From a phage: a stretch of 64,000 nt of DNA. The notes beneath the pieces are model-generated. The model saw nothing but the letters and a program-made list of their open reading frames with translations. It was not told the origin of the DNA and made no database searches. Within the stretch, counting starts at the first letter, position 1; each line of letters begins with the position of its first letter. This document shows, one piece after another, positions 2,764-64,000 of this stretch. The stretch lies in sequence record PZ583738.1; one strand, given 5' to 3'. A program made the position numbers and the translations under genes.

Positions 2764-3771
2764 ATGTTTAAGAAATACAACAGCCTTGAAAATCACTATA
2801 ACAACAAGTTCATTGAAAAGATTCGCCTGCAAGGCTTCACCAGCGGTGAATGGGTAGCTCGCGAGAAGATTCATGGTACCAACTTTTCATTAATCATTGA
2901 ACAAGACAATGTGACATGTGCGAAACGCACTGGACCTATCCTGCCTGCAGAAGATTTCTATGGTTATGAAATTGTATTAAAGAATTATGCTGATTCTATT
3001 AAATCTGTGCAGAAACTTTTGCAGGATATTAATTACCAGGCATACCAGATTTATGGTGAGTTTGCCGGGGCAGGTATCCAGAAGAATGTGGATTACGGTG
3101 ATAAAGATTTTTATGTATTTGATATCCGCGTTACTAAAGAAGATGGTTTTGAATCCGTCCTGACTGACACCTTGATGGAAGCATTCTGTATTATCCATAA
3201 GTTTAAGGTTGCACCGCGCCTGGCTACAGGTAGTTTTGAAGAATTAATTAAGCTCCCTAATGACCTGGATTCTGTTGTCCCTGATTACAATTTTACAGTG
3301 GATAACGCAGGTTTGACTACAGCAAATACCACTGATTTTGATGCAAAGGCGGAAGGTAAAGTATTCACTGCTGAAGGATTTGTATTAAAACCTGATGTTC
3401 CTGCATGGTTACCTAACGGCGAGCGTGTAGCGATTAAATGTAAGAACTCTAAATTCAGTGAAAAGAAAAAGTCTGATAAGCCTATTAAGGCTGCAGTGGT
3501 TCTGAGCCAAAATGATATGGATTTACTGTGGAATTTCACTGATTATGTGACTGTTAACCGTATCAACAATGTTATCAGTAAAATTGGGGAAGTAACACCG
3601 AAGGATTTTGGAAAGGTAATGGGGTTAACAGTCCAAGATATTCTGGAAGAAGCGGGGCGCGAAGGTCTTGAATTATCCCTGACGGAAAATCCTGTTGAAG
3701 TTAAAAAGCAACTCATCACAAATGTAAGAGAAACATTAAGACATGTTTGGATTGCATTAGTTAGTGAATAA
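2764..3771 (+). CDS. rnlB: RNA ligase 2 (Rnl2 family)
   Basis: 335 aa; N-terminus [13 protein letters not shown]...[15 protein letters not shown] with nucleotidyltransferase motif I lysine (KIHG); matches recalled T4 Rnl2 along its length. Confidence 0.9.
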
Positions 3772-10904: not shown

Positions 10905-11396
10905 TTATTCCCACCAGTCAATTGCGAACGTTGTTTCAAACGTCTCAATCTCATTATTGGAGTCCCAATCCATCTGGACTTCCCCAACGTTGGTTGGCCA
11001 CATGCCGGTAATAACAACTTCTTTCGTAATGGTCTTGCCATCACGATGGAACTGGCGGACAGTAGCGGTTTTCTTATAATCAGCAGGAGCTGCACCAGTG
11101 ATTTCGTTAGTCATACCGTGACACAGGTTTTGCCAATCAACAATTGCTTGACGAACTTTATGAGCATCGTCGTTATAAATCGTAATAGTCCAGTCATCAA
11201 ATGTACGGTCACCCGCCACGTTGATTTTACGGTTCATGTAACCGACCGGAACTTTTTCTACAATGCCTGCTGGCATCGGGGCTGCTTTACAATGGAAAGC
11301 AAAGTTTTTACCCAGGAATGGGATTTCGACTTCGAACAGGTTAGGGCGAGCAAAGTCCCCTGACTCGAAGGCCCTGGTGATATCAGTAAGTTCCAT
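10905..11396 (-). CDS. 19: tail tube protein gp19
   Basis: 163 aa, same size as T4 gp19, position after gene 18. Confidence 0.85.
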   Translation of the reverse strand: MELTDITRAFESGDFARPNLFEVEIPFLGKNFAFHCKAAPMPAGIVEKVPVGYMNRKINVAGDRTFDDWTITIYNDDAHKVRQAIVDWQNLCHGMTNEITGAAPADYKKTATVRQFHRDGKTITKEVVITGMWPTNVGEVQMDWDSNNEIETFETTFAIDWWE

Positions 11397-11399
11397 AAG

Positions 11400-12083
11400 T
11401 TATTGTTTCCTATGATAATTTTCTATAAATTCTTGTAAATCACGTAAAGATATACTATTATTTATATCCTTCGAACGATTCAATTCCCACGGAATCATTT
11501 CAAGATTTTCAATGTGTCCAATGATTTCGGGGTCGATATTATTGTCAAATCCATACTTGATGGAAACCTTGTGGTCTAATTGATATGCACCTTCAATTCC
11601 AGCTCTTCCGGTCTTTTCAAAATTTGGGAGATTTTGCACTTCAGATTTAAAATTTAATGCGGTGAATTGACGAACTGCATATGCATATCGTTTGAATTCT
11701 CTTAATCTTGGATTATATCGTCCGTTTAATTCCCCTCGAGTATTTATATTGGGAATACCCTTTTTGGATTTGGAGATTTTTACGCCTTTAGATTTTCGAA
11801 TTTTTAGTCCATCTGGTGTGTTCCAAAATTCTTTACGCAAATCCGAATAAATTTCCCATCTATGGCTTTTGCAGAATTGGATATTGATGTTATTTATTTT
11901 ATCTCGTGTAACTGTATATTCAGCTCCACATTCATCACATTTACAATCAACTTTGACTCGGCATCCCAAATGTTCAATGTTGATTAAATGTGTTGTTCCT
12001 ACTGAAACATCATAACCTTGCTCACGCAAATTTGTCACATTTCTATTAGTTACATTAACGAGTTGTTTATCACTTACTATCAT
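11400..12083 (-). CDS. freestanding HNH homing endonuclease inserted between genes 18 and 19
   Basis: 227 aa; Cys-rich N-terminus (CKCDECG), HNH-type motif region AYQLDHKVSIKYGF...N; T4 has no gene at this junction. Confidence 0.75.
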   Translation of the reverse strand: MIVSDKQLVNVTNRNVTNLREQGYDVSVGTTHLINIEHLGCRVKVDCKCDECGAEYTVTRDKINNINIQFCKSHRWEIYSDLRKEFWNTPDGLKIRKSKGVKISKSKKGIPNINTRGELNGRYNPRLREFKRYAYAVRQFTALNFKSEVQNLPNFEKTGRAGIEGAYQLDHKVSIKYGFDNNIDPEIIGHIENLEMIPWELNRSKDINNSISLRDLQEFIENYHRKQ

Positions 12084-58737: not shown

Positions 58738-59097
58738 ATGGTAAGAGTTATCACTTTAGCCATAGGGTTAGTATTCAGCATGGGAGGAATAGCTTCAGTA
58801 CAGAGCGATGACAACAACAGCATCATAGAATATGCAACGAGGACGGCTAAAGATTATTGCGCAGCAAGCAATGTGGATTGTGTAATCCAGTTCAGTGCCA
58901 AGCTCACCGCAGCCTATAAAGATGGCCAAAATGATGTTGAACATACGCTTTTGAAAAAGAATGTATTATCCAACAAATATGAAAAGAAATTATTTGAAAT
59001 GGATTGCATTCTATCAAGTGCAAAATATAAGGCGGCCTGCACCAGTATGGTTGACAGGTTAGTGGATTCATATAATAGAGGATTGAACTCTAAATGA
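58738..59097 (+). CDS. hypothetical secreted/periplasmic protein
   Basis: 119 aa; N-terminal signal peptide MVRVITLAIGLVFSMGGIASVQS; four Cys. Confidence 0.5.
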   Translation: MVRVITLAIGLVFSMGGIASVQSDDNNSIIEYATRTAKDYCAASNVDCVIQFSAKLTAAYKDGQNDVEHTLLKKNVLSNKYEKKLFEMDCILSSAKYKAACTSMVDRLVDSYNRGLNSK

Positions 59098-59567
59098 TTA
59101 CCCAGTATATTAAGGGCGATATCGTCGCCCTCTTTCTTAGTGGTAAAAACATTGCACATGGTTGCAATTGCTTCCATACAATGGGTTCAGGCGTAGCTGG
59201 TCAGTTGGCGAAGGCTTATCCAAGGATTTTAGAAATAGACAAAACCTCAACCGACTATGGTTACAGAGGAAAACTCGGTGATATGTCTATTGTTTTCAAA
59301 TATTCCCGAGGTCCGTCAACTTGCTTTAATCTTTACACCCAATATGAACCAGGACCAAATCTTGATTATCATGCTTTAGTAAATTGTATGGTAGAATTAA
59401 ATCGAGTCCTGAGTGAAGGAACACTATTCCGACCAGTGGTTTATATCCCACGGATTGGATGTGGTATTGCAGGTGGAGATTGGGAAAAGGTCTCTATGTT
59501 AATTGATATTTTTACCCCTGACATTGATTTGATAGTGGTGGATTATGAGCCAAGCCCGAATTCTTAA
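59094..59567 (+). CDS. macro-domain protein (putative ADP-ribose binding/hydrolase)
   Basis: 157 aa; GCNCFHTMGSGVAGQL and PRIGCGIAGGDWEKV match the two glycine-rich macro-domain signature blocks. Confidence 0.65.
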   Translation: MITQYIKGDIVALFLSGKNIAHGCNCFHTMGSGVAGQLAKAYPRILEIDKTSTDYGYRGKLGDMSIVFKYSRGPSTCFNLYTQYEPGPNLDYHALVNCMVELNRVLSEGTLFRPVVYIPRIGCGIAGGDWEKVSMLIDIFTPDIDLIVVDYEPSPNS

Positions 59568-61537: not shown

Positions 61538-61544
61538 TTCAAAA

Positions 61545-61570
61545 GGTCTGCCTTCGGGTGGACCTTTTTT
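61545..61570 (+). terminator. intrinsic terminator after ORF 61154-61537
   Basis: ggtctgccttcgggtggacc hairpin followed by tttttt. Confidence 0.6.
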
Positions 61571-61625
61571 CATTTAGAGGTTTACAACACCATAAAAAGG
61601 GTGTACTATTATCCCATCAACTACT
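61570..61625 (+). promoter_or_regulatory. early promoter / stem-loop cassette
   Basis: GTTTAC ... gtgtactattatcccatcaactactgagg. Confidence 0.4.
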
Positions 61626-61841: not shown

Positions 61842-62035
61842 TGATTACTTTAGAACAAGCAAAGAGAATCTCTGCATTAGTTGCAGCAATTCGTGAAGCA
61901 GATGATGAAATGGCAGCTTATGCTTGGGCAGCCCCATCTGTATCTGGCGGTAAAGAATTAGAAGCAAAAGTTGGCAATGCTCTGGAAGCATTGGATATGT
62001 TCCTTGACGAAATTATTGATTACAGGACTGCATAA
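61841..62035 (+). CDS. small helical protein
   Basis: 64 aa, ATGA-coupled. Confidence 0.45.
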   Translation: MITLEQAKRISALVAAIREADDEMAAYAWAAPSVSGGKELEAKVGNALEALDMFLDEIIDYRTA

Positions 62036-62217
62036 TGTTAACTACTGAACAGATTGAGAAAATTATCAAACTCGCTTGGCACATTGAAAATGCATCCAAT
62101 GACCTGGCTGTTGAATATTGTGAAGGTTATTCATATTCTGGAATAGAACAGTGTAAGCGTGATTTGAATAGTTCTAAAGAAGAATTAATTGCTTATCTGA
62201 ATGGGTTGAAAGAATAA
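62035..62217 (+). CDS. small helical protein
   Basis: 60 aa, ATGA-coupled; ...KEELIAYLNGLKE. Confidence 0.45.
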   Translation: MLTTEQIEKIIKLAWHIENASNDLAVEYCEGYSYSGIEQCKRDLNSSKEELIAYLNGLKE

Positions 62218-62474
62218 TGGCTGTTGGATTTGCAAAAGATGGTGCTGAACAGTTAGAGATGGAAGCGGTTGTACAGGCCGCTATCACCCATGCGAGAGCA
62301 CAGGTTGCAGTTGAAAGGGAGTCTGCTGAATTCTGTTTTGACTGCGACGAAAAAATTCCTGAAGCGCGGAGACAAGCGATTAAAGGTGTGATATATTGTG
62401 TTGGTTGTCAATCAATGCATGATGAAATTTTTAAACGTGAACCAAGAAATTGTTGGCACAGGAGCATGAGATGA
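62217..62474 (+). CDS. DksA/TraR-family C4 zinc-finger protein
   Basis: 85 aa; CFDCDEKIPEARRQAIKGVIYCVGCQ matches the TraR/DksA C-x2-C-x17-C-x2-C zinc finger. Confidence 0.65.
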   Translation: MAVGFAKDGAEQLEMEAVVQAAITHARAQVAVERESAEFCFDCDEKIPEARRQAIKGVIYCVGCQSMHDEIFKREPRNCWHRSMR

Positions 62475-62565
62475 TTTATTACTTAGAACCCTGGGCTTGG
62501 TCAACAATGATTATAGGTCCTATTTTAATCGGTTTATTCTTTTCGTGGTTAGTGAGGAAAATGTA

Positions 62566-62781
62566 ATGTTATATGATCCAAGCGGCAATTCTGAAAATGG
62601 TGTGATTGTTCTGGAGCCTGAGCATCCAGTTGGTGACGTATACCGCCCAGTTGAAGTATGCGAATGTAATTTTGTTAAAGGTAATACCGGTGGGATTTCC
62701 ATTGAGCAAGATGATGATGTTATTTACCTGGATGCAAGCCAAGTAGAAGCACTTTATAGTATTTTAAAACATAACCGTTGA
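62566..62781 (+). CDS. hypothetical protein
   Basis: Track ORF starts at TTG; ATG at 62566 has RBS GAGGAAAA. Confidence 0.45.
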   Translation: MLYDPSGNSENGVIVLEPEHPVGDVYRPVEVCECNFVKGNTGGISIEQDDDVIYLDASQVEALYSILKHNR

Positions 62782-62791
62782 GGAACAGAAA

Positions 62792-63352
62792 ATGATTATT
62801 GAAACAACTGAATTGTTTGGCGAACTGACCGCTGAAGTAGTTAATAATGCAATTGAGCTTTGTCAAGAAGACGATAAAATCGTACTGACTATCCAAGATA
62901 TTAAACCACTTTATGATTTAAAGGTTTTGGATAAAGACGAATATCTTAGTGGTAGTTTTAGTGGTGTATTTGATATTAACGATGATGTATGTGCTCGCAT
63001 TTATAAGCACGATGGTGGGTTTAATATTGAAACAGATGAAAAATGTCTGAGCATTAGCGATTCTGATAAATTCTTTGATTGTATTTTCAAACTGTTCCAG
63101 GAAGAATGTAAGCCAGAAGTTGAATGGAAAGTCCCAGGTCAAGATGCAGTGATTCGCTCTAGTGAAACCTTTGACGGTGACGAAGAGGAATTGAATTATA
63201 ATACTGAACTGACTGTTGTTCAGCATGATGGTCGTGACCAACTATGTATTACCCAAGTACACGATGGTTTTAATGAAGTGGTATTTACTAAGGACGAGCT
63301 AAAAGTTTTAGTCTCTTATCTGAACTCTGTTATCCCAACTATGAACTCTTAA
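62792..63352 (+). CDS. hypothetical acidic protein
   Basis: 186 aa ORF with RBS. Confidence 0.5.
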   Translation: MIIETTELFGELTAEVVNNAIELCQEDDKIVLTIQDIKPLYDLKVLDKDEYLSGSFSGVFDINDDVCARIYKHDGGFNIETDEKCLSISDSDKFFDCIFKLFQEECKPEVEWKVPGQDAVIRSSETFDGDEEELNYNTELTVVQHDGRDQLCITQVHDGFNEVVFTKDELKVLVSYLNSVIPTMNS

Positions 63353-63362
63353 GGAAAATATT

Positions 63363-63815
63363 ATGATTATCAATGCAAACTCTTGGCACGTTAAATTACA
63401 CGACCGTTTTTATGACCGTCATTCTCGACCACACTCTTTGTGTGCTTACTTCTGGAAAATGGTTTGGGCTTGTTTTGTTTGTGCTATTGCTGCAGGTAGT
63501 ATTGGTTTTGGATTAACTGTTGCTGGCGCTGGTGTATTAGAGCATTTCTTTGTATTAAGTACTCCTGTTGGTTTGGGTTTGGGTTTTATTTTAGGACTAG
63601 CTACGCTGGCTCTTATTCTGGCAGTCGCATTTGGTTTGATGTATGGTCTAATGAATCTATGGACCTGGTATGATTTACGTAAAGAAGAAAAGGAATGGCA
63701 ACGCATTAAAGCTGAGCGTGAAGGCCGAGAAACTAAAGAAAACGTTTTCATTCAATATATCAAAGCTCGTAAATCTAAGATGTGTCCTATAATCCATTTT
63801 GAGGCGAAGAAATGA
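63363..63815 (+). CDS. hypothetical membrane protein
   Basis: 150 aa; multiple hydrophobic helices (FVCAIAAGSIGFGLTVAGAGVL, GLGFILGLATLALILAVAFGLMYG). Confidence 0.5.
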   Translation: MIINANSWHVKLHDRFYDRHSRPHSLCAYFWKMVWACFVCAIAAGSIGFGLTVAGAGVLEHFFVLSTPVGLGLGFILGLATLALILAVAFGLMYGLMNLWTWYDLRKEEKEWQRIKAEREGRETKENVFIQYIKARKSKMCPIIHFEAKK

Positions 63816-64000
63816 GAACAGTTATGAAAGGCTACTTCGGTAGCCACCTTTATGGAACAAGTACTCCAGAATCTGATGTCGATTTTAAAGAAATCTTTGT
63901 TCCGCATCCTCGTGATATTCTACTTGGGACGGCGATGAACCATACCAACCTGAACACGAATAACACGGCTACCAAAAATACAAAAGATGATGTTGACCAT
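63812..64000 (+). CDS. nucleotidyltransferase-fold protein, N-terminal fragment (runs off window end)
   Basis: Hand translation MRTVMKGYFGSHLYGTSTPESDVDFKEIF...; G-S-x10-D-V-D is the Pol-beta NTase signature; ATGA-coupled to previous ORF. Confidence 0.45.
   Translation, partial: MRTVMKGYFGSHLYGTSTPESDVDFKEIFVPHPRDILLGTAMNHTNLNTNNTATKNTKDDVDH

Follow-up and report, generated by a model that had tools for sequence, protein, structure and literature searches.

The 3' end of a 64,000-nucleotide stretch of phage DNA (sequence record PZ583738.1; the whole stretch is referred to as the window) carries the beginning of a gene that, judged from its sequence, is an orthologue of the T4 early gene nrdC.11 and encodes a DNA polymerase beta-type (Pol-beta) nucleotidyltransferase (NTase) of the RlaP family, within a long subfamily termed here NrdC.11-type. 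The fragment is the start of a known and widely conserved T4-type gene that the literature already assigns to RlaP, and is therefore real but ordinary. NrdC.11 probably acts as an RlaP-type enzyme that adds nucleotides to RNA 3' ends in the repair of nuclease-broken RNA, a reading to which we give a probability of about 0.6 and in which the activity, the substrate and the role in counter-defence are predicted by homology. The direct support from this analysis consists of orthology, family membership, conserved catalytic residues, a confident structural model and the RNA-repair neighbourhoods of cellular relatives.

Identification of the gene at the window end

A megablast search with positions 62000-64000 returned 142 phage records, the best of which was Escherichia phage vB_EcoM_RZ (Tevenvirinae, Gaprivervirus; hereafter RZ) at 95.9% identity, and the neighbourhood in the window carries T4 hallmarks such as lysozyme e, endonuclease V and thymidine kinase. 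Direct translation of 63812-64000 gives MRTVMKGYFGSHLYGTSTPESDVDFKEIFVPHPRDILLGTAMNHTNLNTNNTATKNTKDDVDH, which is identical to the 336-residue RZ orthologue YP_010650964 at 62 of 63 residues, with V61I as the sole difference. Existing records name the gene nrdC.11 in several cases and 'nucleotidyltransferase' in RefSeq. The full-length RZ orthologue matches PF10127 (RlaP, 'RNA repair pathway DNA polymerase beta family') at 49.4 bits, T4 NrdC.11 matches the same family at 46.4 bits (cutoff 23 in both cases), and the RZ protein matches phrog_388, 'nucleotidyltransferase', at E = 6e-131. A 90%-clustered database yielded 2640 matches, and among the matches listed 120 of 120 had previously been annotated as PF10127; at 50% identity clustering the family comprises 3211 clusters (E <= 1e-3). 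NTP_transf_2, Polbeta, MntA and PDC-S09 were rejected as the family, as they gave only sub-threshold, motif-level matches to the fragment or the full-length orthologue in Pfam, NCBIfam and PADLOC.

The closest described protein is T4 NrdC.11 (NP_049709, '38.9 kDa protein in the nrdC-mobD intergenic region'), an orthologue that likewise has 336 residues and belongs to PF10127, shows about 81% identity in T2/T4-type phages and shares the position between the mobD.x and nrdC.x early genes. T4 differs in having mobD immediately upstream of nrdC.11, whereas a membrane protein of phrog_944 occupies this position in the window. Matches to the NTase occur in 1513 phage records, mainly from phages of Escherichia, Klebsiella, Shigella, Aeromonas, Acinetobacter and Vibrio, whereas the canonical RlaP type is found in 86 phage records, nearly all from jumbo phages such as phiKZ; T4-like phages carry the long type only, and jumbo phages the canonical type only. 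Many GenBank and UniProt entries for NrdC.11 orthologues read 'thioredoxin', apparently inherited from the gene label nrdC.11, and isolated entries read 'HNH homing endonuclease' or 'ArsR regulator'. All of these labels are mistaken, since the protein is a PF10127 NTase.

The earlier note on this DNA, made from the sequence alone, had reported a G-S-x10-D-x-D NTase signature in the last 63 codons, and translation bears this out: G10-S11 is followed by ten residues and D22-V-D24. The motif by itself proves little, given that the loose pattern G[SG]-x8-14-D-x-[DE] occurs 16 times among the open reading frames (ORFs) of the window and that the 63-residue fragment alone scores 18.1 bits against Pfam RlaP, under the cutoff of 23. 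The reality of the ORF follows instead from homology: a hidden Markov model (HMM) of the NrdC.11 clade matches the fragment at 91.6 bits (E = 2e-27), and 20 database proteins, each of 336 residues, have an N-terminus that is exactly the 63 residues of the window. The call of an NTase was likewise upheld, with the full-length orthologue above the PF10127 threshold and its acidic residues conserved. The description of the signature as a 'second' one could not be verified: no other Pol-beta NTase or RlaP was detected among the window ORFs tested, and in a six-frame translation of the window nothing besides the fragment scored above noise with the NrdC.11-clade HMM. A GS-x9-DLD match at 3229-3270 was rejected as an NTase signature, being a chance match inside RNA ligase 2; it may be what had been counted as the 'first'. 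The remaining GS...DxD strings of the window were rejected for the same reason, as occurring by chance.

Catalytic residues and predicted structure

In a set of 266 full-length homologues, no substitution occurs at G10, D22 or D24, S11 is kept in 264, position 62 is acidic in 265 and position 60 is Asp in 260. K243, H247 and R250 of the C-terminal domain are invariant or nearly so across the same set. A profile-profile alignment (hhalign) of the NrdC.11 clade with a set of canonical RlaP proteins of about 265 residues, taken from bacterial loci, gave a probability of 93.5% over residues 2-135 at 16% identity; it pairs the GS...DxD of NrdC.11 with the GS...DYD of canonical RlaP, and D62 with the conserved Asp in 'lDi.GWD', a motif of the canonical proteins. 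D22, D24 and D62 are thus predicted to form a catalytic triad, and this putative triad lies wholly within the window. The earlier note had named two findings that would speak against its proposal. Loss of the second and third acidic residues is not seen, because D22, D24 and D62 are conserved and inside the window. As to a match to a characterised housekeeping enzyme, the family already has a name and a bacterial member, RlaP, whose biochemistry has been described (PMC12776372).

An AlphaFold2 (AF2) model of the full-length protein, built from a 48-sequence alignment, has a mean predicted local distance difference test (pLDDT) score of 91.7. The NTase core is followed in the model by a beta-rich region and then by a helical domain at the C-terminus, and a strand is present at residues 61-67. 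The beta-rich region, at about residues 154-208, lies outside the alignment with canonical RlaP and may serve as an additional module for RNA binding. A conserved Y-x-V-x-GRK motif is present in this region across the NrdC.11-type clade. Structural matches of the model are Pol-beta NTases and viral 'nucleotidyltransferases', and Foldseek matched the PDB only weakly, to NTases (E = 3.5e-3 at best). Neither the single protein nor the clade profile had a relevant sequence match in the PDB copy searched, from which the PfRlaP structure appears to be absent.

The characterised RlaP enzymes come from P. fluorescens and P. aeruginosa, where they are encoded in rtcB-rlaP-rtcA operons (PMC12776372). 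They share with NrdC.11 the Pfam family, the GS...DxD...D residues and probably, as the AF2 model suggests, the arrangement of the PfRlaP crystal structure, in which an N-terminal NTase domain and a C-terminal helical domain form a cleft, and both types lie near RNA repair genes in cellular genomes. The NrdC.11 type differs in being about 85 residues longer, with a diverged C-terminal domain, and a published network places NrdC.11 in cluster 5 and the bacterial RlaP in cluster 1a (PMC12776372).

Genomic neighbourhoods of cellular relatives

A scan of 185,579 reference genomes identified at least 120 loci with full-length NrdC.11 relatives, and the best 80 were kept. These relatives have 30-52% identity and come from Desulfobacterales, Alphaproteobacteria, Nitrospirota and some archaea. 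Neighbouring genes within 5-kb flanks at the 80 loci, many of which lie on short contigs, were grouped into clusters, checked against Pfam and tallied by HMM. Canonical RlaP (253 bits) is present at 26 of the 80 loci, mostly directly downstream on the same strand; RtcB is present at 10, Ro60/TROVE at four, a T4-type RNA ligase Rnl (PF09511) at three and Pnkp (HAD_PNKP) at three. On a Nitrosospira contig the gene order is Ro60, RtcB, the NrdC.11-like gene and RlaP. The frequent position of the long type beside canonical RlaP in cellular genomes suggests that the two types are not redundant. Tandem paralogues of the long and the canonical (about 265-residue) RlaP are sometimes found inside Ro60-RtcB operons, examples of tandems being locus L067 (5001-5945 and 5973-6770) and locus L038 (555-6743).

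The upstream membrane protein

The earlier note had described the NTase gene as translationally coupled through ATGA to a multi-pass membrane protein and had singled out the pair as worth examining. The overlap is present, the NTase ATG (63812-63814) sharing bases with the membrane protein TGA stop (63813-63815), but it carries no special meaning, because overlaps are common in this early region: of the 26 same-strand junctions tabulated, 12 show an overlap of some kind, which is ATGA-type or 1-nt at nine, five of these being ATGA-type. The multi-pass label is reasonable, since hydropathy indicates a hydrophobic stretch at about residues 25-101, with room for about three membrane spans, followed by a charged C-terminal tail. 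The protein has no Pfam family above threshold and no PADLOC model, and a comparison with PDB chains gave no meaningful match and no HalA chain, the best being a K+ channel at E = 0.29. Proteins of phrog_944 carry conserved end motifs, with NxNSWHxK and P-[KH]-[ST]-LC-x-YFW at the N-terminus and KARKxK[VM]CPxIx[FY] at the C-terminus; two conserved cysteines are among the motif residues.

The partnership was assessed by synteny in seven phage lineages, by tblastn against T4 and by the neighbours at the 80 cellular loci. A homologue of the membrane protein lies directly 5' of nrdC.11 in the window, RZ, Tequatrovirus fPS-90 and Mosigvirus NicPhage; in Klebsiella phage M198 it lies three genes further upstream of the NTase. 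No homologue was found in T4 by tblastn, where the homing endonuclease gene mobD adjoins nrdC.11, and in phages of Pseudotevenvirus, Biquartavirus and Schizotequatrovirus (Pseudotevenvirus EBPL, Aeromonas phage L9-6 and Vibrio phage VH7D) the ORFs upstream of the NTase are unrelated and soluble. Homologues of phrog_944 are confined to some T4-like genera and occur in 873 phage records, as against 1513 for the NTase. At the cellular loci, a hydrophobic segment is present in the upstream ORF at five of the 40 that have a close upstream ORF, and a homologue of the membrane protein is present at one of the 80, on CAVJPU010000002.1, a 167-kb sequence that also carries the NTase and was deposited as a 'bacterium' bin, but has the size of a T4-like genome and probably comes from such a phage, wrongly assigned to a bacterium in binning. 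The membrane protein is therefore rejected as a conserved partner of the NTase, being absent, displaced or replaced across phages and not recurrent at cellular loci, and the pairing is local synteny with a lineage-specific neighbour rather than a module. The check for an adjacent HEPN or effector-like partner that the earlier note had suggested also found none: the NTase gene is flanked on its 5' side by the membrane protein gene and, in RZ, on its 3' side by a tail-needle-knob gene on the opposite strand, and no HEPN gene is present.

Proposed role of NrdC.11

The name RlaP derives from genomic association with RNA ligases, according to the accounts of Burroughs & Aravind 2016 given in PMC12776372 and PMC7824862. 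A December 2025 preprint (PMC12776372) describes two RlaP enzymes from Pseudomonas that extend RNA at the 3'-OH by one or two nucleoside monophosphates, favour Mn2+ and act on neither DNA nor proteins. Given a mimic of nicked tRNA, the enzyme extends the 5' tRNA half at its 3' end in preference to the acceptor-side 3' end, and with a tRNA that lacks one anticodon-loop nucleotide, treatment with RlaP before ligation raises aminoacylation from <10% of the intact control (PMC12776372). RlaP has been predicted to restore nucleotides lost to RloC-type nucleases (PMC7824862) and is proposed as an antidote to nucleotide-excising 'smart' ribotoxins such as RloC (PMC12776372). The same preprint assigns T4 NrdC.11 to cluster 5 of PF10127 and describes it as an RlaP 'of unknown function' (PMC12776372). 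T4 tolerates deletion of the nrdC.11-mobD.3 block (PMC9825161), as expected for an accessory or counter-defence gene.

In the mechanism proposed here, NrdC.11 would bind two divalent metal ions through D22, D24 and D62, the metal being Mn2+ in those bacterial enzymes that have been characterised. Without a template, it would extend the 3'-OH of broken RNAs, for example cleaved tRNA halves, by one or two nucleotides and in this way replace those removed by RloC-type host anticodon nucleases. End healing by the phage Pnkp and sealing by Rnl1 or Rnl2 would follow. A candidate sealing partner, RNA ligase 2 (rnlB), is encoded in the window about 60 kb from the NTase, and Rnl1 and Pnkp genes are present in RZ, the closest relative, about 85 kb from nrdC.11. 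The gene nrdC.11 is the last of a run of small early genes, and the overlapping membrane protein would stand outside the mechanism.

Several points weigh against this proposal. A ligase, healing or Ro60 gene lies within 5 kb at only 15 of the 80 cellular loci, and in this phage no RNA ligase or Pnkp gene adjoins nrdC.11, these genes being 60-85 kb away. The biochemistry was performed on Pseudomonas RlaP, which belongs to a different cluster and aligns with NrdC.11 only over residues 2-135 (16% identity), and the authors of the preprint themselves call the in vivo role of RlaP unproven (PMC12776372). The roughly 85 extra residues of NrdC.11, including the beta-rich region, and the diverged C-terminal domain do not align to canonical RlaP, so the substrate or product of NrdC.11 could differ. 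The best match among solved structures, in a PDB copy that appears to lack PfRlaP, is Hailong HalB, a maker of DNA and not a repairer of RNA.

Alternative explanations

An unlikely alternative is that NrdC.11 tails RNA 3' ends or repairs tRNA acceptor ends, rebuilding damaged CCA ends or tagging host RNAs for decay. Family membership and catalytic residues fit this equally well, bacterial RlaP labels many E. coli RNAs with little specificity for the nucleoside triphosphate (PMC12776372), no ligase gene adjoins nrdC.11 in the phage, and T4-like phages have their own tRNA genes, two of which lie within the window. The cellular relatives of the clade are linked, however, to RtcB, Rnl, Pnkp and Ro60, which points to the repair of breaks; the preference of bacterial RlaP for the 3' end of the 5' tRNA half over the acceptor-side end points the same way, and the sequence has no sign of CCA specificity. 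Modification of a small molecule or protein is very unlikely, whether as an ANT/Lnu-like reaction, as MntA-like AMPylation or as the synthesis of a nucleotide signal, with the membrane protein or another phage or host protein as target. Its sole basis is generic fold similarity, whereas the sequence matches, confined to the GS...D motif, are far below threshold, no HEPN gene adjoins nrdC.11, the genomic contexts are those of RNA repair, and bacterial RlaP labelled neither E. coli proteins nor DNA (PMC12776372). A type VII (MNT-HEPN) toxin-antitoxin system was rejected, as NCBIfam MntA gave 15.2 bits against a cutoff of 60 over residues 8-25 only, with no HEPN neighbour.

The fold match to HalB and the membrane protein neighbour together raise a Hailong-like or anti-Hailong function, in which a HalB-like NTase would make an oligodeoxyadenylate that gates an adjacent HalA-like channel or, as counter-defence, keeps the host HalA closed. 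HalB (PDB 9dbh) is an NTase that makes oligo-dA and guards the HalA membrane channel. It has 217 residues, with no detectable sequence relationship to the 336-residue NrdC.11, and the clade profile gives no HalB sequence match even at E <= 10. Hailong is a bacterial defence operon, whereas nrdC.11 is a phage early gene whose small membrane neighbour is not conserved with the NTase; that neighbour has only 150 residues, is missing or displaced in many NTase-bearing phages, T4 included, and has no meaningful PDB match, with no HalA chain among its matches. The NTase is, furthermore, a bona fide member of PF10127, with cellular relatives that lie in RNA-repair neighbourhoods and not beside membrane proteins. 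This function is accordingly extremely unlikely. Also extremely unlikely is a functional link confined to those Tevenvirinae in which the phrog_944 gene overlaps the start of nrdC.11, where the conserved, charged and Cys-containing C-terminal tail of the membrane protein might tether or regulate the NTase, or an oligonucleotide made by the NTase might act on a membrane channel. In the latter case, phrog_944 and nrdC.11 would form a phage-borne Hailong-like or anti-Hailong device instead of an RNA-repair enzyme with a chance neighbour.

The gene itself adds little that is new, being present in about 1,500 sequenced phage genomes, labelled as a nucleotidyltransferase in RefSeq and recently assigned to RlaP. 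The practical value of the analysis lies in locating a putative triad inside the fragment, in identifying the 'thioredoxin' label as wrong and in recognising the NrdC.11-type clade as a distinct long form of RlaP. If NrdC.11 restores nucleotides excised by RloC, as in the RNA-repair reading preferred here, the classic T4 tRNA repair by Pnkp and Rnl1 would gain a further enzyme, a hypothesis that has already been published.

The early gene region and other features

The coordinates of the features described are collected in Table 1. A terminator-like hairpin followed by a promoter-like site upstream of the NTase is the probable start of an eight-gene early unit in which the NTase is last, as suggested by consensus scans and by comparison with RZ and fPS-90. 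The next terminator-like site on the + strand of RZ lies about 195 nt past the NTase stop, and the fPS-90 record likewise annotates an upstream early promoter and, where the NTase gene stops, a terminator.

Table 1. Features of the window, with positions counted from its first nucleotide
Feature	Position	Strand	Basis
5' part (63 of 336 codons) of the nrdC.11 orthologue, long-type RlaP-family (PF10127) Pol-beta NTase, cut by the window end	63812..64000	+	Translation, homology
Pol-beta NTase signature: G10-S11 (63839-63844), D22 (63875-63877), D24 (63881-63883)	63839..63883	+	
D60-V61-D62; D62 (63995-63997), where strand beta-4 starts, is predicted to supply the third catalytic carboxylate	63989..63997	+	
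GAGG, Shine-Dalgarno-like, 7 nt 5' of the NTase ATG, within the 3' end of the membrane protein gene; putative function	63801..63804	+	Read from sequence
150-residue multi-pass membrane protein, phrog_944; syntenic neighbour in some Tevenvirinae	63363..63815	+	phrog_944 E = 1e-55 for the RZ orthologue; hydropathy
Strong terminator-like hairpin (61541-61568), then promoter-like site (61581-61609)	61541..61609	+	Consensus scans
RNA ligase 2 (rnlB), candidate sealing partner	2764..3771	+	PF09414 RNA_ligase 72.5 bits, PF18043 T4_Rnl2_C 63.5 bits

Just downstream of nrdC.11, RZ carries an opposite-strand gene (11042-11788 of locus L001, -) at the place where T4 has nrdC.10. Its product contains a tail needle knob domain of the Sf6 type (PF16532, 112 bits) and weakly matches a collagen-like model. 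A podovirus-type knob domain is unexpected in a T4-like myovirus. T4 NrdC.10, encoded by the downstream neighbour of nrdC.11 in T4, has only sub-threshold AAA/STAND matches, and its gene appears to have been replaced in RZ. In the window, the tk-vs early region also encodes a Macro-domain protein (PF01661, 28 bits) at 59094-59567 (+). Macro domains act on derivatives of ADP-ribose, and RNA repair is a source of some of these compounds.
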